A stretch of DNA of 16,402 nt, from positions 128,001-144,402 of IMG/VR virus record IMGVR_UViG_3300021256_000064. The stretch is one strand, 5' to 3'. This document shows, piece after piece, positions 1,484 to 16,388 of this stretch; the first letter of the stretch is position 1, and every line of letters starts with the position of its first letter. Below the pieces are notes generated by a model, which saw only the letters and a program-made list of their open reading frames with translations, was not told where the DNA came from and ran no database searches. The translations under genes were made by a program, and so were the position numbers. This stretch comes from a virus.

Positions 1484-2044
1484 TTATTTACTTAACTCCT
1501 CAATTAATATTGCTCCTAATGAGTTACCAAGAACAATAAGTATAAATTTAAAAATATTTATTAAAGACAAATTGAATAACAGATAAGGAAAATCTGCTAT
1601 ACAATGCTCTGCTCCAATAAGAATAAAAATCATAATCGCAAAAATTGTTAATATAGTTACTTTATTTTTTACAGCAAAATGAATTAACATTCCACAGAAA
1701 GTAGCGTTTACAAATAAAGTTAATGCACTTTTGGTAAATTTAGTTGCACTAGACGCAGATATAATATTAACAAAATCTGGATTTCCTAAAGCATAAAGAC
1801 CTATTGTAGCTGCTATTGCAATACAATTAAATAATAATATTGTAATTAAGATTTTTTTCTATTCTAATGTTGGTTTAGAATAGAAACCAATTTTTCCAGT
1901 AAATAAATTTAATTGCATATTAATTATTGTTAAAAGTCCAAAACTAAATAATAAAGCTCCTAAAGCAGGGATTGAAGATTGAAGGTTAATAATAACCCCC
2001 AATCCAATTAAGATTCCCGCGAGAGCCGATTTTTTAACACACAT
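1484..2044 (-). CDS. formate/nitrite transporter (FNT)-family channel-like membrane protein, 186 aa with one in-frame TAG at 1859..1861
   Basis: Track ORFs 1859..2044 and 1484..1690 are in the same frame. I translated the gap and it contains a single TAG and no other stop. The joined protein is a hydrophobic multi-TM protein. It has the FNT hallmark motifs NLFTG (compare FocA GADLFTS) and GAEHCIADF (compare FocA GFEHSIANMF), plus a C-terminal LGNSLGA. It is shorter than FocA (~285 aa). The start overlaps the nrdD 3' end by 11 nt. Stop is TAA, 2 nt before the nrdG ATG. Confidence 0.55.
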
Positions 2045-4361
2045 AATCTTCCACTGCTCCCATATAACGACGTTGTCCTCTTAGTAAAGATGAATGCTTA
2101 AATCTCATTTCTGTTTCCTGTTGTTTTCCAAGATTAAAGGCTGTTTTATAATCTCCTGTTAAATAGCCTGTAACTCTACGCAATCTCTATATATTTGTTC
2201 CTCCGCACATTGGACATTCATTATTAATTTCTCCAGTGTATCCGCAATTTAAACATAAATCATTAGGAACATTTAATGCGAAATAAGGAATATCTTTATC
2301 CATAGCATAATTAACAATTTGTTCAAGTGCATCAATATTATGTAAGATTCCACTATCTAATTCTACATAAGTAATGCATCCTGCATTTGAATACCCAGTT
2401 AGTTGACTTTCAATATCAATCTTTGTAAATGGGTCAATTTCTTTCCAAACTGGAACGTGAATACTGTTAGTAAAGAACTCTTTATCACTTACATTAGGAA
2501 TTTCTCCATATTTTTCTTTAAATTTTTTCATGGCAGTATAGCATAAATTCTCAGCAGGAGTATAATAAACACCAAAGTTAAGTTTATATTTTTGTTTATA
2601 TTCCGCGCATCTGTCTTTAAATAATTGTTCAATACGTTTGGCAAGTTCCATACCTTCATCTGTTGTATGGTCTTTACCTATAAGTATTTGAAGAGTTTCT
2701 GCTAAGCCAAGTTGACCAAGAGCTAATGTGCCATGTTTAAGCGCGGATCTAATTCCTTCTTCAGGTTTATAACCTAACATGGTATTATTTTCCCACATAA
2801 ACTTTGCAGATTCAGGAGATTGAGAACAGATATATTCAAATCTTTCAATTAACATATCTTTAGCTTCATTAATTTTTTGATCAAGTAATAACATAAAATA
2901 TCCAATAATATTAGGATCATTTATTCCAATATTTTTTGTCCAACGATAATTAGCTTCCATAGCAAGAGTTGGAAGAATAATTGTTACAGGACAAATATTA
3001 CCGCGCCCGTCTTTACGCTGTGGATTTACACCTGGTTCTACATTTATATCTGCTCCATTAGCCGTACGGCATCCCATTGTAGAGAAATATGTAGTTGGGT
3101 CATTTTTGTCATAACCTGCATTTCCGCTCCAATCAACATTAGCGTAATTTGGATATAATCTTTTTGCTGTTGATTCAAGAGCTAATCTGTATAAATCATA
3201 ATTTGGAGTTCCTGGTTCTTTATTAACTCCTTTCATTACTTGGAAGATTCCACAAGGAAAAATTGATGTTTTATGGAATTTACCATTTCCTTTTATACTG
3301 CCTTCAAGTAATGCTTTAATAACCATTCTTCCTTCTGGAAGAGTACAGGTCCCATAGTTAATTGAAGTAAAGGGTAATTGATTGCCACTTCTACTTTGTA
3401 ATGTATTAAGATTATGATACATACCCTCAACCGCTTGTTGAAGCTATTTAACTGTCATATCCATAGCATATTGGTATGCTTTTTTATATTTTTGATATTC
3501 TAAATTATCAATACTAAAATTATCAGAATATTGGTTACGAATATTTATAAATTTTAAATGGCTTCCATTATTTTCTTTATTATAATATAAATCTGATGAT
3601 AATTCTATATATCTTAATCCATCAATATAATGTTTCCAAAAACTTTTTCTTACATAAGGAACCATTGTCCAATCTAAGTGAGTTGCTGATACGCCTCCAA
3701 ATTGTTGTAAACTTTGTAATTGAAATATTACTGCAACAAGTTGAAAAGCTGTATTAATTGAGTTTGCTGGTCTTACGTCTGTTTGACGAGTATTAAATCC
3801 TTTCGCTAATAAATCATCAAAAGGCACTGATAGACAATTATGCATACCAACTGCATATGTATCTAAATCATGAATATAAATTTCATTATTTAAATGATTT
3901 TCTCTAGCCATTTTTGACATACAATTATCAAGAGCGTATTGTTTGGAAATAATTGAATCAAATTCCCCGCGGCGACCACCAAAGGAATGTTCATCAACAT
4001 TAGCATTTTGATTATCAATTTTAGAACCTGCAAGTTTTTCTTGCGCTGCCCGCATCATTTTATTATTCCAATTTCTTTCTCTTGTTCTTTCTTCGCGATA
4101 TTTAATATACGCTTTTGCTACATCTTTTCTTTTTGTAGACATTAATCCATTTTCTACTAAGTCTTGAATTTCTTCAATAGATAATGGATGAGTTTCTTCT
4201 TCACAGTAGCCTTCAATATAATTTGCTATATTCTATGCTTTTGTTTCAGCATATTCAGAAATCTACCCATCTACTGCTTTAAAAGATTTTAAAATTGCAT
4301 TTTTAATTTTTTGTGTATCAAATGGCATTTGTCTACCATCTCTTTTGATTATATAAATCAT
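2034..4361 (-). CDS. nrdD: anaerobic (class III) ribonucleoside-triphosphate reductase, ~775 aa, with four in-frame TAG codons (4263..4265, 4233..4235, 3444..3446, 2187..2189)
   Basis: Track ORFs 3444..4142 and 2187..3422 are in one frame and joined by TAG. Upstream of 4142 the same frame continues through two more TAGs to ATG 4361..4359, with GGAGGA RBS. The N-terminus MIYIIKRDGRQMPFDTQKIKNAILKSFKAV...EEIQDLVENGLMSTKRKDVAKAYIKYREER is an ATP-cone that aligns with E. coli NrdD (VMKRDGCKVPFKSERIKEAILRAAKA...INEIQTAVENQLMS...ARAYIEYRHDR). Downstream of TAG 2187 lie the glycyl-radical motif LRRVTGYL and the NrdD C-terminal tail NLGKQQETEMRFKH. The C-terminal Zn cysteines are CLNCG...CPMCGG. Final stop is TAA 2034..2036. 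Confidence 0.85.
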
Positions 4362-4824: not shown

Positions 4825-7800
4825 TTAAATCTCCTTTTCTGTTGAAATTCTTTCATGTTCTAATGTAATATTTTTGTTTGTTACATTTGTAATTCTATAT
4901 AACTGATGTGTTGGTGTTGATTTATAAGTTTTTGCTACAAAAGTATCTTCTCGCCTAAATCCTGTAATTAAAACTTTTGTACCACGAGAGAACCAGCCTT
5001 TTTCTAATACTTTTTTAGTACCATCTGGTTGTTTTTCAGAAATTTGACGATTAAACATAGCATAATATTCTTTTGTAAATTTTACATTTACAACTCCATC
5101 TGTCGTTAAAATAGCGATAGATGCTTTAGTATTATTTTTACTAATAATTGTTCCTGCAATCCTATATAATTTAAAGATTGGAATTTTTCTATCTCCTCTT
5201 TTAAAGAAATAATCAACTACTGGTTCTTCTGATAAAGATGAAAAATCTACAATACCATATTTATATTTATCAATATTAGCTAATTCATGTTCGTGATAAT
5301 AAAAACACAAACTTTCCATTTCCCACGCAGAAATATTTCCAGTTGCATATTTATTCCATGTTTCATTAAATAATAAATTATTATATTGATTTAATACTTC
5401 ATCTTGATTCTCTTTTAACCAGTTTCTTGCTTCATCCATTTCTTTTTGATAGATTTTATCCCATTTAGTTTGAAGAATACAAGTAATTCCATTAATAACA
5501 TCAAGTTCATTTAAATCATAATATTGTGAATAAAAATTTAACGAACCTTCATCAAATATATAATATTTACCAACTTTTTTATTATCTTTAAGAAATTTAT
5601 TAAATACAAATACTTGTTTTTGTTTATTTAATTCTTCTGGTACTAAACCACTTTTTAATAATCCATTAAAATTTTGTAAAGTTAATCGCTTTTTTGGATC
5701 ACAAACTAATGATACATAATATGCCATAATTGCATATCTTGGATTTTCTTTACAAATTTCTGATGCCCAATCATTATCAACCTTATCAAAAGCTCCTGAT
5801 TTAATTAACGAAATCATTTGAGTTTTATTTAGCGGGCATCTATTCATAAAATCAATAATTCCAGTGTATGGGCGGCCGCCAATAATCTTATCAATAACTG
5901 GTCCACCAATTTTATTAACACCTTTTAATCCAAAAAGAATTTCATTATTTTCTTCATCTGGTTCAAAACTGTATCCAGATTTATTAATATCAATTAATGA
6001 TACTTTAATTCCTTTTGAAGTTATATCTCCAATAGCTTTTGCTAATTTAGAATAATCAGTAGATTTATCTTTAGTATTGTCCTCATCATCATCTTCATCA
6101 TCATCTTCAAGAGAAGCACTATTAATGATTAGACATGCAGTATTCCAATAAATTGGATTCCAATTAGTCGCTAAATAAATTGTCTGAACTCCAATAAAAG
6201 AATATGCAAGAGCATGAATGATAGAGAATGAATATCCCATCTGAGGACCAACACCGCATTTCCAAACATACTTACCAAGAGATGGACTAGAAGCTGTATC
6301 TAATATCTTTTGATGTAATTCTGGAATTTTTGCCATTTGTTTTTTACCAACAATTTTACGTGCGGCATTAGCTTCTTTTAATGAAAAATTGCAAATGTTT
6401 TCATCCATCAACATTCTCATTAACTGCTCTTGTGATGGTGGAACTCCATAAGATTGTTTGAAATATGGTTCAATAAATGTTTGTTCTTCTTTTGTTAAAC
6501 CTGCTCGATTCATTTCTTGATACCATAATGAAATATTATTTTTATAACGAATATATTTTTCCATAGGTGTCTCTTCACCCTTTTCAGATGTCATAAGACG
6601 CATTAAGCCATTGGCATCCGCCATTTCAAGAATATTAGTTGGTTTAATTTTCTTTGCGGCTTGTGATCCCACATCTGAATCAAACTGGAAAACATTTAAG
6701 ACACTATTATTTTGAAGAGCTTCCCATATTTTTTTATTCTCTAAAGGCAAAACTTCTGGATGAAGATATTTATTATATACCTCTCTTAAAGAGAGGTCTT
6801 TATCAATTTTATTATTTTCCTGAAGAAGTTTAATTGTTTGAACAATCTTATCCTGAACTTCTGTTACCAAGAAGTCATATTTTGTCATACCGCATGCTTC
6901 ACATTTATGAAGATCCCATTGAGTTATAATTTCACCTTTTGGAGTTTTCATAAAACATCCAAATTCGTATGGATCTTCATCAAAAAGAATAACACCAGAA
7001 GCATGACTAGACCTTTTATTTATCAACCCTTCAATTGCCATCGCAATATCTAATAAACCAGGATATAAATTAATTTCTGAAATAAAAGGCGCGATAGGTT
7101 TTCTATCTTTATCTTTATTCCCATATACAACATCTTTAAGAGGCCATAAAAAACCTCTCTCACTTGGAATTAAAGAAGATAAAAACTGAGCTGTATCAAC
7201 ATCAATCCCGTCTGGAAAATCTTCTGAGCGATAACCGCGGCAAGCTGTTAATACTGCTGATTTAGTTCCTTCTGTACCAAAAGTCGCAATAAGTGTGCAA
7301 CCAAGGTTTTTTCTACTTAAATCATCAATATCTTTATTGAAATTTTGACCTCGTTCTTCTTTTATCTTTTGAAGAATCAATGGACGTTTTGATGGACAAA
7401 GATCTAAGTCTATGTCGCCTAACTCAACACGTTCTTTATTAAGATAACGCCAGAACGGAAGATCCCATTTAATTGGGTCAAGCTGAGTGATGCCTAAAAG
7501 ATAATGATTTAATCCTGAGCAAGATGAACCACGCCCCGCACCAACTGTACTTCCGCACTCCCAAAAAAGATCAACATAATGCTGAAGAGTTATTGGATAA
7601 CTAAACATATTAGTTCCAAGTTTTTCACTAATAGTTTTTTTAATATCTGCTTCTTCTTCTAATCGAGAAAGATATTCTTTTTTATATATATTTTTATTTA
7701 ATAAATTTTGTAAACATTCATTTACCCAATATCTTTCATATTTATCATCAGAAGATAACATATTTCTTAAAGTTGGATAAAATTCTTCAATATTCATATC

Positions 7801-8784
7801 CCTAGATATTTTTGCGTAAGGATAAAAATTTTTACTTTTAGGATAATCTTTTACCTTTACTTTTGGAATTGTCTGTTGATGTCTAATATCATAGTTCTCA
7901 ATCTTATTATAAATTTCATATGAATTATCTACTAATTCATCATAATTTAATTCCGATGGTATAATATTTTCTTTTATGTCATTTTCATCTTGAAGATACG
8001 CATATTCATAAAATGCATCAACTTCACGTTCTCCGCCTTTTGAGTTAAGATATGCTTTATGTACATATCTATCTTCTTTTTTAAGATAATGTGCATCTGA
8101 TCCAAGAACCATTTTACAATCAAAGGCGGCAGCTACAGCTTTAAGACGTCTATTAACAATAACCTGTTCGCTTGATTGACCTGGCGCACACTCGATATAA
8201 AAGTCATCACCAAAAAGACGCTTACACCATAAGATAAAATCTACAATATCATTATGGGCTTCAGCGGCTCCTATTTTGTCATCATGCTTTTCTGCTTTTA
8301 TAAGATTTAAAAGTTGAGAAGAAACTTCTCCACCAAGACAAGCTGTTGTTGCAATTAAACTATTTGGATATTTATTAACAATCTCTTCAAGTTCATCATA
8401 TGTTGTAGGAACTCTTTCAAGACCTCTATCCCAATAACTATTCATCCAAGCTCTTGAAGAAAGCTCTCTTAATGCTCTGAATCCAATTTTATTTTTTGCA
8501 ATCAAAATAAAATGATAATATTTTTGTCCCATCTCTCTATCAGGAGTTAAATATATTTCATTTCCTAATGCAACTTTAAAATCTGGATGCGTCTTTAAAA
8601 TTTCTTGAGCATAGAAGTTTGCTTGCGGAGCACCGCTCAAACATTCATGATCGGTGAGAGCTATCCCACTTAAACCAATTTCTATTGCTCTATCAATAAG
8701 TGCTGGAATTTTATTAATGCAATCTAATAATCTTATGTTTGAAAATTCTGAGTGAGAATGCACCTCAAACCTTTTGACCATCAC
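4825..8784 (-). CDS. dnaE: DNA polymerase III alpha subunit (DnaE-type, PHP domain N-terminus), 1319 aa
   Basis: One uninterrupted ORF. The N-terminal PHP motifs are EVHSHSEFS...IALTDHECLSG. Size is typical for Pol III alpha. An acidic insertion DDDEDDDEDN lies in the C-terminal region. There are no in-frame TAG codons. Stop is TAA. RBS is AAGAGG. Confidence 0.9.
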   Translation of the reverse strand: MMVKRFEVHSHSEFSNIRLLDCINKIPALIDRAIEIGLSGIALTDHECLSGAPQANFYAQEILKTHPDFKVALGNEIYLTPDREMGQKYYHFILIAKNKIGFRALRELSSRAWMNSYWDRGLERVPTTYDELEEIVNKYPNSLIATTACLGGEVSSQLLNLIKAEKHDDKIGAAEAHNDIVDFILWCKRLFGDDFYIECAPGQSSEQVIVNRRLKAVAAAFDCKMVLGSDAHYLKKEDRYVHKAYLNSKGGEREVDAFYEYAYLQDENDIKENIIPSELNYDELVDNSYEIYNKIENYDIRHQQTIPKVKVKDYPKSKNFYPYAKISRDMNIEEFYPTLRNMLSSDDKYERYWVNECLQNLLNKNIYKKEYLSRLEEEADIKKTISEKLGTNMFSYPITLQHYVDLFWECGSTVGAGRGSSCSGLNHYLLGITQLDPIKWDLPFWRYLNKERVELGDIDLDLCPSKRPLILQKIKEERGQNFNKDIDDLSRKNLGCTLIATFGTEGTKSAVLTACRGYRSEDFPDGIDVDTAQFLSSLIPSERGFLWPLKDVVYGNKDKDRKPIAPFISEINLYPGLLDIAMAIEGLINKRSSHASGVILFDEDPYEFGCFMKTPKGEIITQWDLHKCEACGMTKYDFLVTEVQDKIVQTIKLLQENNKIDKDLSLREVYNKYLHPEVLPLENKKIWEALQNNSVLNVFQFDSDVGSQAAKKIKPTNILEMADANGLMRLMTSEKGEETPMEKYIRYKNNISLWYQEMNRAGLTKEEQTFIEPYFKQSYGVPPSQEQLMRMLMDENICNFSLKEANAARKIVGKKQMAKIPELHQKILDTASSPSLGKYVWKCGVGPQMGYSFSIIHALAYSFIGVQTIYLATNWNPIYWNTACLIINSASLEDDDEDDDEDNTKDKSTDYSKLAKAIGDITSKGIKVSLIDINKSGYSFEPDEENNEILFGLKGVNKIGGPVIDKIIGGRPYTGIIDFMNRCPLNKTQMISLIKSGAFDKVDNDWASEICKENPRYAIMAYYVSLVCDPKKRLTLQNFNGLLKSGLVPEELNKQKQVFVFNKFLKDNKKVGKYYIFDEGSLNFYSQYYDLNELDVINGITCILQTKWDKIYQKEMDEARNWLKENQDEVLNQYNNLLFNETWNKYATGNISAWEMESLCFYYHEHELANIDKYKYGIVDFSSLSEEPVVDYFFKRGDRKIPIFKLYRIAGTIISKNNTKASIAILTTDGVVNVKFTKEYYAMFNRQISEKQPDGTKKVLEKGWFSRGTKVLITGFRREDTFVAKTYKSTPTHQLYRITNVTNKNITLEHERISTEKEI
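6082..6110 (-). repeat. short tandem codon repeat (catcatcatctt-like) encoding the acidic DDDEDDDED tract inside dnaE
   Basis: Direct reading of + 6082..6110 (tcatcatcatcttcatcatcatcttc). It is low-complexity and in frame. Confidence 0.5.
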
Positions 8785-8814: not shown

Positions 8815-8863
8815 ATTATAAAATAAATAAATAAAAAAGTCAAGCGAGTTGCCCCGCTTGACT
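8815..8863 (-). terminator. rho-independent terminator after the homing-endonuclease gene
   Basis: The 9-bp stem AGTCAAGCG / CGCTTGACT spans 8838..8846 and 8855..8863 with an 8-nt loop. On the minus strand it is followed by a T-rich run (+ 8819..8837 is aaaataaataaataaaaaa). Confidence 0.5.
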
Positions 8864-9029
8864 AGTCATATAAAATAAATATTTAAGCTATCCTGTCCAT
8901 TGGAGTACCCTCCATATTATATTGGTTCAATATGTCAACGAGTTACAATTATTCAAACCATTGGACCGTACCTCTCTTTCATAATATTTATTTCTTACAA
9001 TTATATTATACAAAAAATTTTTTTATTTG

Positions 9030-9605
9030 TCAAATTTTATTTAAATCTTTTTGAGTTGGTATTTCTAATGCTTTTTTATGAATTTCATATCTTTGAGTAT
9101 AAGAATTTAATCTAATATATTTATACCATTTCTTTTTAGAATGAATACATTTATATACAGCTTGTTTTGAGATACCTTTTATATTACAAAAATCAGGGAT
9201 AGAAATAAAATCATTATCATTTTCTTGATTTATTTCTATATTATATGGAATAAAATTTTCTTTTGACATTCTTGGAACAAAATCATTTTTTGATATTGTA
9301 TTATTAATATTAAAATCATTTTCTTTATAAAGAATCCATTCTGGTTCTTTTAATAAAATAGTTGATTTAATGTTTTTAAAAGTTTGATTTAATTTAGGAT
9401 GATATTTTGTAATTAAAAAATATTCAAAACTATTCATTTCTAGCTCATTATTACAATTAAAATAATAAATTTCAAAATTTTTTAAATTTTGAAATTTATT
9501 ATCTTTGCTATGTTCATATAGCCGTCTTTTTAAATTATTTGTTTTTCCAATATATATAATTTTATTCTTTTGAACATATTTATAAATATAATATTTATTA
9601 ATCAT
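9030..9605 (-). mobile_element. free-standing GIY-YIG homing endonuclease gene (191 aa)
   Basis: N-terminus YIYKYVQKNKIIYIGKTNNLKRRLYEH is the GIY-YIG motif. The basic C-terminal tail resembles a NUMOD/HTH DNA-binding tail. The gene is intercalated between the Dda-like helicase and dnaE. Stop is TGA. Confidence 0.8.
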
Positions 9606-9635: not shown

Positions 9636-10817
9636 TTACCTCACTAATACTAATTTTTCACTAGCTCTCGTACAAGCTGTATATAGCCATCGAGCATGTT
9701 CATTTTTATCAAATGGAAACTTTTCTTCAAGAACAACTACCTTATCCCATTCACTACCTTGGCTTTTATGGGTTGTAATAGCATAGGCATATGTAAATTC
9801 TTTAGGAACAATTTCCCCATATTTAGAACGTAATTTGCCTAATTTATAAGACAATCGCCAATCACAACATTTTTCTCCAGTAATAATCATTTGGCGATCC
9901 ATCTCTGTCATTTGATAAACATCATTAGTTTCTGGCACAACTAAATCACCAACTAAAACATCAAATTTTCTTATATCACTTTGTACAAACCTGGGAATTT
10001 CTCTCCAAGTGCGAAAACTATTTTGAAGAATACCAATAGTCCCATTAATTAAAGCATCTCCATTTAAGCTTGAATCATCCCAGTAATTGCGGAGACATAT
10101 AATCTTATCTCCATCAACAGGTTCTCCAGTTCTTCCCTGTAGTGCGCGCATTTGATTATTAATGGCTCGTCGCTTTGCATTTGTTGCAGTTAGAATTTGG
10201 TCTCCCCATTGTAATACTCCAGTATTCAAATCTGAGTAAGGAATAATTTTTACTTCATTACCATTAAAATAATCAATTGACTCTTGATTTCTGATTTTCA
10301 TAGTAAGCTGAATAATTTCAGAATCTTCTTCCTGTCTCATAATTTCATCAAGAAAAATATGAGGATTATCTAATAGATGATTATCTTCATCTTTATCAAT
10401 AGGCGGCAACTGGAAAGGGTCTCCTAAACAAATAACATATACTCTATGCTTAAATAATAACTCTATTAAAGATTTGGGAGCCATAGAAACTTCATCAACT
10501 ACAACTACATCATAATCAATAAGTGGTTTTGGCTTTCTAAAGAAACCACCCGCTGGCCGCGGTATATGTTCATATAGTAACCGATGAAGAGTTGCTACAT
10601 TTTTATTTCCTTTTTTCTTTAATACCTCTGCAGCCTTACCAGTAAAAGCACAATAACATACCCTATCTTCTTCAACATTAAGAGCGTCGATGATATAACG
10701 CACTAGGGTCGACTTTCCTGTTCCTGCATATCCCGCTATTGTGGTAAATTTATATCCAGCTCGATGTCGCGCCACAGCTGTTTTTAATCCTTCCTCTTGT
10801 TTTTTTGTTAATATCAT
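9636..10817 (-). CDS. Dda/RecD-like superfamily 1 ATP-dependent DNA helicase (393 aa)
   Basis: Walker A is GYAGTGKST and Walker B is VVVVDEVSM. C-terminal motifs ITTHKSQGSEWDKVVV and YTACTRA match the AAA_30/UvrD_C_2 (RecD/Dda) architecture. The start overlaps the upstream stop in TAATG. Stop is TAA. Confidence 0.8.
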   Translation of the reverse strand: MILTKKQEEGLKTAVARHRAGYKFTTIAGYAGTGKSTLVRYIIDALNVEEDRVCYCAFTGKAAEVLKKKGNKNVATLHRLLYEHIPRPAGGFFRKPKPLIDYDVVVVDEVSMAPKSLIELLFKHRVYVICLGDPFQLPPIDKDEDNHLLDNPHIFLDEIMRQEEDSEIIQLTMKIRNQESIDYFNGNEVKIIPYSDLNTGVLQWGDQILTATNAKRRAINNQMRALQGRTGEPVDGDKIICLRNYWDDSSLNGDALINGTIGILQNSFRTWREIPRFVQSDIRKFDVLVGDLVVPETNDVYQMTEMDRQMIITGEKCCDWRLSYKLGKLRSKYGEIVPKEFTYAYAITTHKSQGSEWDKVVVLEEKFPFDKNEHARWLYTACTRASEKLVLVR

Positions 10818-11068
10818 TATTCATGCTCTCCAATTACTTCATCTAAAATTTGAACAAAACGCATTATGTCTCTATTCGCTCTTTGCCGATACACAGTCCA
10901 TTCAGTATGATTAGAGACATTGCTCTGTCTATCTCTTAGATATTCATATTCTGCCATTTGTTCTCTGGCTCGAATATATCTATATATTAAAGAATCATAT
11001 TGATAGCCTTTTAATTTCTTTTCATCTATTGTATTAATTTTTAAACTTTCATCTGACATATCTAACAC
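10817..11068 (-). CDS. hypothetical protein (83 aa)
   Basis: Intact ORF. It is coupled to the helicase gene through a TAATG overlap. No family recognised. Confidence 0.5.
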   Translation of the reverse strand: MLDMSDESLKINTIDEKKLKGYQYDSLIYRYIRAREQMAEYEYLRDRQSNVSNHTEWTVYRQRANRDIMRFVQILDEVIGEHE

Positions 11069-11083
11069 CTCTATTATTTTTCT

Positions 11084-11539
11084 TTAATTTTCTTCTAATT
11101 TTTTTCCCATTCTTAATTTCATTAAACGACCTACAAATTCCGCTTGAGTTAGAACTGTTTTTGAAGGATCATTCTTTCCTATTGAGTGTGATAATATTGC
11201 TGGGCGGCTAGCCTCTAAAGCTTTTCTAAATCCTTCATTTTGATATAGTGCGTTATAGGCTTTATTTAAAAGAATTTGATATTCCTGACTATCACGTTTA
11301 TATTCTTTACCTTGCCAATATAAAGTTTGTGTTTTCCACCATTTTTTATCTTTTCCTTTATACTTTGCTTTTTTCCCAACTAAAGAACATACATATTTTT
11401 GCATATCAGTATTTTTAAACTTTAAAGATTGCAAAAAGCCTTCCATTGAGTTACAAGGTATCTCATCTATAATAAAAGGATGCGGTGCAAAATTACTTAA
11501 TGAGGCTGCAGGATAACCTGAACCACTTCCAATATCCAT
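11084..11539 (-). CDS. NADAR (YbiA/DUF1768)-like domain protein (151 aa)
   Basis: SLSNFAPHPFIIDEIPCNSMEGFLQSLKF aligns with E. coli YbiA FSNFAAWPIKVDGKTWPTSEHYFQAQKF. The motif ILSHSIGKND aligns with YbiA LVEHTEND. AGGAG RBS and a strong upstream promoter are present. Stop is TAA. Confidence 0.55.
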   Translation of the reverse strand: MDIGSGSGYPAASLSNFAPHPFIIDEIPCNSMEGFLQSLKFKNTDMQKYVCSLVGKKAKYKGKDKKWWKTQTLYWQGKEYKRDSQEYQILLNKAYNALYQNEGFRKALEASRPAILSHSIGKNDPSKTVLTQAEFVGRLMKLRMGKKLEEN

Positions 11540-11569
11540 ATTTATTCTCCTAACATTTTATTTATATAT

Positions 11570-11598
11570 ATTATATCAAATTTTTATAAAAAAATCAA
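11570..11598 (-). promoter_or_regulatory. sigma70-like promoter for the NADAR gene (TTGATT-N17-TATAAT with TGn extended -10)
   Basis: On the minus strand, -35 TTGATT is the complement of + 11593..11598. Then a 17-nt spacer. -10 TATAAT is the complement of + 11570..11575, and a TG lies one nt upstream of it. Confidence 0.45.
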
Positions 11599-11604
11599 AA
11601 AGAA

Positions 11605-11637
11605 AAAATGCGATTGAAAAAATTCCAAACGCATTTT
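11605..11637 (-). terminator. possible weak rho-independent terminator downstream of recJ-like gene
   Basis: Stem AAAATGCG (11605..11612) pairs with CGCATTTT (11630..11637). The loop is 17 nt and may pair internally. On the minus strand a T-run follows. The large loop makes this weak. Confidence 0.3.
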
Positions 11638-11673
11638 TCGTTTCCTGTGGACGACTGCCTGCGCGCCGAGCCG

Positions 11674-13455
11674 TTAAAAGAAGTATTTAGCAGAATCTAC
11701 AATTTCAAAATCCTACATAATAAGCTGTGGGTAGACGCAACCATTCCACTAATTTTTATTACATTTACAAATAGCGTTTACCTCTAAATATCCTGTTGTT
11801 GTAAATTTGGTAATTTCTTCTTCAGTTCCATTAAATTTAATAATAGATAATCCGTTAGGTAAATTAAATTTTAAAGTATTACTTTTCATAACTTTAAAAT
11901 TAGAATCAGTAACTTTAAAATTAATATTTACATAAGCTCTGTCTATATCTTGACCCCAATAATCATTCATATCTGCAATATCTAAAATGCGCTGATTGTT
12001 GTTTTCTTTTTCATTAAAATTATAATCAATTCTATAAATAGGTTCAACAGAGACATCTTCAAGAAGCTAATCAATCTTATAAAGAAAATCACTTATATGA
12101 TCTGCTTCTATACCAAGTCCCGCCGCATTGTCATGTCCCTATACATATAAAACTCCTGGACATTGTTCAAGTACTTCTTTAAAACTATTAATTCCAGTTT
12201 TTGTATATCCACGCATAGAGCCTTCATAAGTTGCTTTATCATTTCTATTAGTTTTAGTTAATAAACAACAAGGTCTTTGATATTTTGCCATAAATTTATT
12301 TGCAATTAAACCACGAATTTCAGAATCAATTTTATTAGGTTCTAATAAGAATAAAAGAATTTTATGGTCAAGCATATGATTAGTTTCAATCATTTTTTCT
12401 AACATAGCTAATCCTGCATCTTCTGCTCTTGTTTGTCTATTTTTAACATTCGTAACTGTTCTAATTGCCTGTAGAATTAATTTTTCTTTCTAACCTAATT
12501 TATGTCCACGCTTGTTTGAAATAACTTCTGTAAAAGCCTTATGTTTTAACATAGAATTAAAAAGTAAATTTTTCTATTCTATTGTTCCACTTCGAGTTAC
12601 AGCATTAATAAAAGGTACAATAAAAAATGCGGCGCCCATAGATGTACATCTCATATTAGGATCCGATGAAACATAATCTGCTTTTGATAAAGGAAATGAG
12701 TTTTTATCAATCATGTAGTCGATAAAAGGATTTTTAATATTCTATTTTTTGAACCCTTTAGTAATTAAATATCTAGTTTCAAATGAACGTAAAGACATCA
12801 TATCCCCACAGTTCCCTAGTGCAACCAAATCTAAAAAACCATCTGCTAATTTTATATCTAATTGATTATCAATATAACGACAAAATTGCCAAACAACCCC
12901 AACACCAGATAATTCCTTATTAGGATAATCTGATAATTGATTATTAATAATAATAGCATTTTCACTAATATGATCTGCTAAGTGATGATCTAAAACTAAT
13001 ACTTGAATATTTTTGTCTGTTAATATCTTATGATAACTATAATCATTACTACTTGAATCTGGGCAAATCACAAGCATTGGATTACGAGCTAATACAAAAT
13101 CAATACAATCACTTAATCCATGTTGTTTACTATCGTGCATATACCAATCTAAATGATTAACGACCCAAGTGGGAAATATCTTATATAAATAATTAATAAG
13201 AAGAGCTGCAGATGTATAACCATCACAATCACAGTCTACAATTACTAAAGCATCAGCATTTTCTCTTACAGTATTAATAATAGCCATTAAACCATTTTTG
13301 AGATTTGTTTCTCCTAAAGACAACGGGGAATTAATATCCTAATCAGATAGATTTACATAATGTAAAATTTCATCTTCCGCAATTCCTCTATTGTATAATA
13401 TTTGCTGTATTGTTGAAAAATTCTAATTTGGTTTATTTATTAACTAATATCTCAT
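11674..13455 (-). CDS. recJ: RecJ-like single-stranded-DNA exonuclease (DHH + DHHA1), ~593 aa, with ten in-frame TAG codons
   Basis: Track ORFs 12742..13323, 12139..12405 and 11749..11970 are all in one frame. The gaps between them, translated by hand, contain only TAG stops. These are at 13444, 13423, 13339, 12742, 12574, 12490, 12139, 12067, 11749 and 11713. The joined protein shows the RecJ N-terminus ILYNRGI, DHH motif I VIVDCDCDGYTSAALL, DHH motif III VLVLDHHLADH, FINAVTR (E. coli RecJ LNAAGR), and the DHHA1 motif *GHDNAAGLG (E. coli FGGHAMAAGL). ATG 13455..13453 is preceded by AGAGGAG. The final stop is TAA 11674..11676. The last ~25 codons after TAG 11749 are less certain. Confidence 0.75.
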
Positions 13456-13487: not shown

Positions 13488-13496
13488 ATTATAACA
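13488..13496 (-). promoter_or_regulatory. extended -10 (TGnTATAAT) promoter element upstream of the recJ-like gene
   Basis: Minus-strand TGTTATAAT is the complement of + 13488..13496. It lies just 3' of the terminator hairpin and ~33 nt upstream of the recJ ATG. No clear -35. Confidence 0.35.
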
Positions 13497-13531
13497 AAAA
13501 AAAGAAGAATTGTCAAATCAATTCTTCCTTT
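13491..13531 (-). terminator. rho-independent terminator after the membrane-protein gene
   Basis: The 9-bp stem GAAGAATTG (13504..13512) pairs with CAATTCTTC (13519..13527), with a 6-nt loop. On the minus strand a run of at least 8 T follows (+ 13491..13503 is A-rich). Confidence 0.45.
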
Positions 13532-13538
13532 TTATAAT

Positions 13539-15165: not shown

Positions 15166-16388
15166 TAAAATGCGCTCGCTTCTATTTTTGGTGTTACTGT
15201 GATTTTTAAATCTTCTATATCTATTAATTCATAGTTATAATTAGTTACAAATAATGGATTAATACGACAAGTTCCTCGTTCTGATTTACACCAGAGTAAT
15301 ATATCTTTATATCTAGCGCGTCTATTTTTATAAACAGACATTTTTATATCAGGCATTTCGATACCCATTGAATTAACAATATTTTTTAAAGATTCTCTAT
15401 CATCTTGGCTCGTTTGTAACATAATCATACCACAATCTATTTTATCAGCAATAGCTTTAGCGCCACGAAGAAGATTTTGATCGTACTGCTGAGCTGTTAC
15501 ATAGTCAGAATTTAACTGCGTTGCAGACATTACAAATACGCCATATTGATTACATAAATCTTTAATTCTTACACTTATCATAAAAAGAATGTTATCTTCT
15601 CTTAATCCTTTAACTCCTGCTTTTGAACTAATTTCACTAAGAATTTTCATACTTGAATGAATATAATCCATAAATACATATCTTACTCCATGATTACGGA
15701 TATTACTTTTAATTGTATTTTCAATATCTTGTAATGAAAAGTCTGGTAATTTTTTAATATATAATGGGCTTTTTGCAAGAATCTCCGCGGCTTCACTTAC
15801 TCGCTCCCATTCATCTTCAACATACGTATTTTCAAGAATATGAGATTCGTTTACATTAGCCAAAAATGCCATCATCATAGTTTGGATCTCATCTTCTTCT
15901 TGTTCTGTTGTGATAAATACAGTTGGTTCACGAGTTCCATTATCTTCCCATTGTTTAGTCTCAAGGTTATAAAGTTTATTGCAAGCAATAAAACAAGCAT
16001 CTGCAATCATGGAACGAGTCTTTCCGACGCCAGTAGCGGCAGACCGCAAATAGAATTTTTTTAATCTAGCCCCGCGATGAATTGTATTAACTAATCTTCC
16101 ATATAAAGGATAACCAACTTCAGGATTTTTTCTTAGTCTTTCAAGTAAAGCTAATGCACCATCACCAGCTTGAATAATTTCATCTTCTGAGTTATCAACA
16201 TATTTAGATTTTATCTCTTCTATCTTATCATTAATAAGATTAGCAATTTCATTAATTGGAGTATTATCAAACCAAGTTTCTTGGGCTTCTTTCTTTTTTA
16301 CATCTAAAATATTATCCGGATCATATAACCAAGATAAATTCATTCCAACATTTTTATTATACATCCGTAAAAGGGTCATTTTCTTCAT
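15165..16388 (-). CDS. dnaB: DnaB-family replicative DNA helicase (RecA-like C-terminal domain), at least 407 aa
   Basis: Walker A is SAATGVGKTRS. Other DnaB-like motifs are DYIHSS and VMSATQLNSD. The frame upstream of ATG 16388 stays open to the window edge, so the N-terminus may lie outside the window. Stop is TAA. Confidence 0.8.
   Translation of the reverse strand: MKKMTLLRMYNKNVGMNLSWLYDPDNILDVKKKEAQETWFDNTPINEIANLINDKIEEIKSKYVDNSEDEIIQAGDGALALLERLRKNPEVGYPLYGRLVNTIHRGARLKKFYLRSAATGVGKTRSMIADACFIACNKLYNLETKQWEDNGTREPTVFITTEQEEDEIQTMMMAFLANVNESHILENTYVEDEWERVSEAAEILAKSPLYIKKLPDFSLQDIENTIKSNIRNHGVRYVFMDYIHSSMKILSEISSKAGVKGLREDNILFMISVRIKDLCNQYGVFVMSATQLNSDYVTAQQYDQNLLRGAKAIADKIDCGMIMLQTSQDDRESLKNIVNSMGIEMPDIKMSVYKNRRARYKDILLWCKSERGTCRINPLFVTNYNYELIDIEDLKITVTPKIEASAF

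Follow-up and report, generated by a model that had tools for sequence, protein, structure and literature searches.

What is a short gene that looks like a NADAR counter-defence factor doing inside the replication module of a virus, and what would its product act upon? The window analysed here is a 16,402-nucleotide stretch of the IMG/VR virus record IMGVR_UViG_3300021256_000064 (positions 128,001 to 144,402 of that record), in which a sequence-only reading had picked out positions 11084-11598 as a YbiA/NADAR gene with its own strong promoter and a candidate anti-DarT role. That range extends exactly from the NADAR stop codon as far as the upstream −35 hexamer. The open reading frame proposed there is real: it occupies 11084..11539 (−), encodes 151 aa from an ATG start to a TAA stop, and has the Shine-Dalgarno sequence AGGAGA, as read from the letters, at 11546..11551 (−), 6 nt 5′ of the ATG. 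An identical protein is encoded on a 124.6-kb metagenomic contig that includes the window (ENA ERZ28612970, scaffold_240).

To place the protein in a family, we compared it with profiles and structures. A Pfam search returned a single match, PF08010 (Phage_30_3, T4 gp30.3), at E=5e-55 and 185.5 bits against a cutoff of 36, with protein residues 8-143 aligned to profile positions 1-137 of 138, and PHROG 652 (phrog_652) also matched (E=2e-44). The profile named earlier as a check, PF08719 (NADAR/DUF1768), gave no match to the protein even at E<=1, and the YbiA-family NCBIfam model TIGR02464 reached 15.5 bits where its cutoff is 73.7 (E=0.016), so neither model supports strict YbiA/PF08719 membership above threshold. 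Searches of PDB sequences with the protein and with the family profile likewise did not find a NADAR. The bridge from a gp30.3-type protein to NADAR consists of fold comparison and hhalign only: a profile of 39 diverse family members aligned with E. coli YbiA at 92.5% probability, pairing SMEGFLQSLKF of the family with TSEHYFQAQKF of YbiA, and the AF2 model of the 151-aa protein (pLDDT 94, pTM 0.89) has the YbiA/NADAR fold, its top three Foldseek matches being the three structures published as neighbours of T4 AdfN. The earlier assignment therefore stands at the level of the superfamily, while PF08010 takes the place of the PF08719/YbiA family proper. The 151-aa protein is a clear NADAR of the gp30.3/AdfN branch, and its kinship with YbiA is one of superfamily. 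Since gp30.3 is the phage NADAR branch in the literature and the hhalign and fold links are independent of that, treating the missing NADAR profile hit as a refutation would mislead.

The predicted catalytic residues of the protein are E33, K40 and H118, which align with E36, K43 and H123 of T4 gp30.3, H118 lying in the motif ILSHS and T4 H123 in VLKHS. All three are invariant across 35 relatives in an alignment of proteins at least about 70% identical, and each reaches at least 90% conservation among the 39 diverse sequences when these are aligned. The C-terminal helix, residues 132-143, is present in the AF2 model and aligned to the T4 C-terminus. The sequence-only reading had named the catalytic residues conserved in YbiA as a check; the Glu that YbiA conserves in its last beta-strand is not present, that position being occupied by H118. 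Published comparisons give phage gp30.3 NADARs a last-strand His, in contrast to the Glu of YbiA and the Asp of DarT-linked NADARs (PMC11125620; PMC11543638; PMC12945103). Judged from sequence and modelled structure, every feature that defines gp30.3/AdfN is found in the 151-aa protein, and hydrolase activity is predicted for it.

T4 gp30.3 (PF08010) is AdfN, the anti-DarT factor NADAR, and gene 30.3 now goes by the name adfN (Johannesman et al., bioRxiv 10.1101/2024.07.11.602962; Nat Commun 2025). In that work AdfN is necessary and sufficient for T-even escape from DarTG1 and takes ADP-ribose off DNA without binding DarT1; the E36A and K43A variants are inactive and lose counter-defence, an RB69 allele without the last 15 residues, in which the C-terminal helix is missing, is non-functional, and the efficacy of AdfN in vivo is attributed to the hydroxymethylated DNA of T-even phages (bioRxiv 10.1101/2024.07.11.602962). 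An independent demonstration showed that T4 gp30.3 de-ADP-ribosylates guanine in vitro, and in one study it did not rescue uninfected E. coli from DarT1 toxicity (PMC11125620). The proposal of a candidate anti-DarT factor thus has stronger support than the letters alone could give: the 151-aa protein and AdfN share one family, and every residue tested or highlighted in the published work is conserved here.

The likeness to T4 AdfN extends beyond the shared Pfam family and active site. Both proteins consist of a single NADAR core domain of 151 (here) or 152 aa (T4), both have the active-site Glu, Lys and His and the C-terminal helix, and both are phage-encoded orphans with no toxin gene adjoining. 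On the other hand, the two are only 39% identical over their full length (E=7e-31), and the 151-aa protein is nearer to other gp30.3 proteins, with 60-65% identity to those of Klebsiella, Enterobacter and Citrobacter T4-like phages and of the 83-kb Vibrio phage 51E28.4. The phages themselves also differ, as the present one has a Pol III-alpha replicase, SPbeta-type YorF/YorH/YonG families, 29% GC and a recoded TAG. While T4 30.3 lies among small genes beside DNA ligase, the gene here most likely heads an operon with an SF1 helicase between the RecJ-like and polymerase genes, and while hydroxymethylated DNA has been proposed to underlie the specificity of T4 AdfN, there is no evidence of such DNA here. 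The gene for the 151-aa protein is therefore one more case of a counter-defence gene already known, and its carrier is a non-T4 phage in which TAG is a sense codon.

Other NADAR systems are more distant. DarG1, the DarTG1 antitoxin (for example the Geobacter lovleyi NADAR, PDB 8bat), is only 14% identical over the structural alignment; it has a DarT1 partner and an N-terminal extension, both absent here, and a last-strand Asp where the 151-aa protein has His. E. coli YbiA (PF08719, PDB 2b3w), with its last-strand Glu that is absent from the 151-aa protein, is a cellular enzyme annotated in E. coli K-12 as N-glycosidase YbiA and given a role on riboflavin intermediates in the literature. NADAR(Bas32) and NADAR(Bas60), from T5-like and Vequintavirinae phages, are likewise orphan phage NADARs that counter DarTG1; they belong to other NADAR branches that were independently co-opted according to the literature, whereas the 151-aa protein clusters with AdfN.

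We then considered what surrounds the gene. Upstream of it, in the order of transcription, lie YorF-like, AAA_24, YorH-like, DnaB-like helicase, YonG_N, primase-like (364 aa), membrane protein and RecJ-like genes; gp30.3 itself is followed by orf80, an SF1 RecD/Dda-like helicase, a GIY-YIG gene and Pol III alpha (1319 aa), and then by dGTP-diphosphohydrolase-like, NrdD, formate/nitrite-transporter-like membrane protein and NrdG genes. The claimed position within a replication module is thus upheld by the DnaB, primase, RecJ-like, SF1 helicase, Pol III alpha and NrdD/G genes around it, and since this is an SPbeta-type replication module, the phage is not T4-like. When the whole window was compared by megablast with 50,697 phage records, there was no match, and a scan of GTDB genomes gave no relative above 71% identity.

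The immediate neighbours are closely packed. The RecJ-like DHH exonuclease gene (11674..13455 (−)) ends 134 nt before the NADAR start. On the other side, orf80, encoding a small protein (10817..11059 (−)), starts 24 nt past the NADAR stop; it gave no Pfam or PADLOC match and is missing from the relatives L010 and L095-L097. Its stop is overlapped by the start of the SF1 RecD/Dda-like helicase gene (9636..10817 (−); 393 aa; Pfam AAA_30, AAA_19 and UvrD_C_2). Then comes a GIY-YIG homing-endonuclease-like gene recognised by Pfam (9030..9605 (−)), with 17% GC and a GC3 of 7% where its neighbours are at about 30%. The same slot lacks it in L010 and L095-L097, and the gene is probably a mobile insertion.

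The NADAR gene keeps its place, with the RecJ-like gene on one side and the SF1 helicase on the other, in L095-L097 (NADAR 96% identical) and in L010 and L011 (75%). Relatives have the helicase directly after or overlapping the NADAR gene; in L095-L097 the NADAR gene overlaps the helicase start by 14 nt. We rejected NADAR-helicase linkage as a feature of the whole family, as a helicase is nearby in 5 of the 93 loci, all from this clade. In L009 (79% identical) the NADAR gene is found among small ORFs, upstream of a phage sigma-factor gene. Recent horizontal acquisition of the NADAR gene was also rejected on composition: its GC (31%) and GC3 (17%) are like those of its neighbours, which marks it as a long-term resident.

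Within 10 kb on either side of the NADAR gene, neither the window nor L003 has an ART/DarT-like gene by Pfam domains, so the gene is an orphan, and the sole PADLOC match was a weak one to PDC-M42C (E=0.007). The neighbouring genes in that range encode DHH, SF1 helicase, GIY-YIG, Pol III alpha, NrdD and similar domains or gave no Pfam match. As for nucleotide metabolism, a dGTP/dATP diphosphohydrolase-like gene (PF18909; 4430..4819 (−)) adjoins the polymerase gene, and the same module in relatives carries family-2 glycosyltransferase, guanylate kinase and nucleoside deoxyribosyltransferase-like genes (L010, 10157..11227 and 15235..15834; L011, 9706..10104). Such genes are a hint that phages of this group have a non-canonical nucleotide pool or modify their DNA, and either would matter for which substrate the NADAR favours.

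The promoter described earlier, TTGATT-N17-TATAAT with an extended −10, is present. This sigma-70/sigma-A-type site (11570..11598 (−)) scores 10/12 with the TG and comprises a −35 TTGATT at 11598..11593, a 17-nt spacer, the TG (−15/−14) at 11578..11577 and a −10 TATAAT at 11575..11570, which ends 30 nt before the ATG. The motif by itself is no evidence of a promoter, because sites of this kind number 114 across the 29% GC window against 109.4 +/- 10.8 in shuffles, which is chance level; what supports it is position and conservation in relatives. A terminator-like hairpin, seen by folding (GAAAAAUGCG...CGCAUUUUUU; 11603..11639 (−)), lies 35 nt past the RecJ-like stop and its T-run reaches into the −35; transcription of the RecJ-like gene probably ends at this hairpin. 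The same layout, in which a hairpin leads at once into TTGAyT, 17 nt, TGn and a TAwAAT whose end is 30-34 nt from the ATG, recurs in four diverged lineages with proteins 75-100% identical (the window with L095-L099; L009; L100/L116; L010/L104), and the hairpins at that site differ in sequence between relatives. In L101-L103 (77% identical) the layout is absent.

In the matter of being unlike its neighbours, the promoter does not live up to the earlier description. The RecJ-like gene has the site TTGACA-17-TGnTATAAT (13516..13488 (−)), which scores 12/12 with TG and is embedded in a hairpin (13533..13488), and the polymerase gene has TTGACT-17-TATAAT (8843..8815 (−)) at 11/12, where the 3′ arm of a terminator doubles as the −35 (8863..8815), as well as a second upstream site at 12/12 (9033..9005 (−)). 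All of these are nearer to consensus than the NADAR site and share its layout, each at a terminator-like hairpin; a hairpin joined to a promoter is how this phage ordinarily separates its transcription units. Nor does the promoter belong to the NADAR gene alone. No terminator follows it in the 24-nt gap to orf80, before the overlapping helicase, or in the 30-nt gap ahead of the GIY-YIG gene, and the first clear one downstream of the NADAR promoter is a strong intrinsic-terminator hairpin of 11 pairs, 6 of them G-C, at 8838..8863 (−). For that reason the promoter, one of several similar ones, most likely heads an operon of the NADAR gene, orf80 and the SF1 helicase, with the GIY-YIG gene possibly the last of the unit.

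Other features of the intergenic regions were observed as well. Within the NADAR promoter, spacer positions 11579..11592 (−) form a perfect AT palindrome, TTTTTATAAAAA, which is found with the same sequence in L095-L099, while L009 has a similar palindrome (TTTTTTATAAAAAA) and L100 a near-palindrome (TTTTTAATAAAAA). The element could be an operator, or simply AT-rich spacer. Just 5′ of the polymerase gene (8838..9033 (−)), the perfect TTGACA-17-TATAAT promoter at 9033..9005 and the strong terminator at 8863..8838 flank about 165 nt without an ORF longer than 9 codons. This stretch folds much better than shuffles (z=-3.8, 0/200) and includes a GGTAC..TCCAATGG motif that is repeated. Its conservation in L096/L098 is about 97%, it has no Rfam match, and we regard it as a candidate small RNA. 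Directly past the RecJ-like stop, a GC-rich stretch (CGGCTCGGCGCGCAGGCAGTCGTCC; 11640..11673 (−)) stands out in this 29%-GC genome; its core, GGCGCGCA(G/A)AGG, is at the same place in the diverged L010 and L011, with GGCGCGCA at 11660..11667 in the window. The GC-rich stretch has no exact repeat elsewhere in the window and no tRNA or Rfam match.

This phage clearly uses TAG as a sense codon, since the RecJ-like gene and NrdD would be split into in-frame fragments if it were a stop. Read through, the RecJ-like gene has 593 codons with 10 in-frame TAGs and NrdD (2034..4361 (−)) has 775 codons with 4, and these genes agree with the gene calls on the source contig. No suppressor tRNA is found in the window. 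In an alignment of the RecJ-like proteins of two phages, the TAG columns hold E (4 times), Q, A, H, T, S, D, N, K and others. The NADAR gene is TAG-free, as had been pointed out, though this does not distinguish it: TAG is absent from 10 of the 16 genes (3277 codons), including Pol III alpha, DnaB, primase, SF1 helicase, NrdG and gp30.3, and even if TAG were as frequent as in the genes that contain it, the probability of finding none in 151 codons would be about 0.24. The absence of TAG is compatible with translation before recoding sets in without singling out the NADAR gene. In L010, whose proteins are 48-63% identical, there are again TAGs in the RecJ-like gene (6044..7846), 12 in all, but none in the same replisome genes, and this unevenness looks like a conserved, gene-specific use of recoding within one replication module.

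How, then, would such a protein serve the phage? We think it probable that it is an active guanine-specific DNA ADP-ribosylglycohydrolase, made with the replisome from a promoter that the host can read, which erases DarT1-type marks. Like T4 AdfN, this orphan single-domain hydrolase would cut the N-glycosidic bond that joins ADP-ribose to N2 of guanine in DNA, and cleavage would undo the replication-blocking marks that a host DarT1-type ADP-ribosyltransferase sets on phage DNA. The NADAR gene would be the first in a unit readable through its host-type sigma-70/sigma-A promoter, a unit that also carries the SF1 helicase. Because this unit is part of the replication module, production of the enzyme would coincide with that of the replisome, when single-stranded phage DNA is exposed. 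We infer in this way the activity of the protein, a DarT1-type toxin as its natural target and the timing of its expression, including any early expression.

It is rather unlikely, in our estimate, that the same chemistry is directed at another target, such as guanine or another base modified by a non-DarT toxin (pierisin/ScARP-like or YarT-like ARTs), or RNA. All NADAR families tested, phage ones included, clear G-ADPr from both DNA and RNA in vitro (PMC12945103), and YbiA-type NADARs pair with YarT, a toxin unrelated to DarT (PMC11125620), which would allow for such a target; yet the sole in vivo role shown for the gp30.3 family is against DarTG1, and the fixed place of the gene among DNA-replication genes points to DNA. 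There is very little likelihood that the protein is instead a metabolic N-glycosidase, YbiA-like and acting on riboflavin intermediates, or a nucleotide or modified-base enzyme recruited with NrdD/NrdG and the dGTP diphosphohydrolase-like gene. The nucleotide-metabolism genes of the window and the weak match to TIGR02464, the riboflavin-intermediate N-glycosidase model, speak for it, but that match falls far under the cutoff, the last-strand Glu that defines YbiA is replaced by His, and the T4 member of the gp30.3 family acts on DNA. T4-like phages with gp30.3 also encode ARTs, which would suit a housekeeping eraser of the phage's own ADP-ribosyltransferase marks, a means of self-regulation rather than counter-defence, but with no ART-like gene within 10 kb of the NADAR gene this is highly improbable.

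The gp30.3 family is large. In metagenomes, a word-indexed search at E<=1e-3 recovered 4042 clusters (90% identity) and an exhaustive search 1098 representatives of 50%-identity clusters. Contigs that carry the family are binned with many phyla of bacteria and also with CPR (candidate phyla radiation) bacteria, and one such contig is 327 kb long, while the published view places this NADAR cluster mainly in T4-superfamily phages. Many representatives (P0129, P0160, P0213, P0218, P0270 and others) are 250-560 aa long and have the NADAR domain at one end or the other. Fusion to further domains is thus common in the gp30.3 family, although phage NADARs have been described as the core domain only.

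The gene does not reveal a new mechanism; what is new is a TAG-recoded phage that is not T4-like and a conserved slot in its replication module. The experimentally characterised AdfN counter-defence family thereby gains a member in a phage lineage that is very different, as is its genetic code, and for annotation this means that PF08010 genes are to be read as anti-DarT1 candidates. The finding is relevant, too, to the suggestion that AdfN is adapted to hydroxymethylated DNA. As a tentative extension, AdfN-type NADARs would not be bound to T-even phages or hydroxymethylated DNA, and in this SPbeta-like phage of a low-GC host the gene would be a stable, promoter-headed part of the replication module, with a translational link to the SF1 helicase in close relatives, and within the TAG-free set of genes that can be translated before recoding is established. 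If this is true, and the enzyme works on the DNA of this phage, DarT1-like guanine ADP-ribosylation would be a major selective force far outside enterobacteria, and the family may represent a fork-associated step of 'de-ADP-ribosylation repair' rather than a stand-alone early anti-defence gene.
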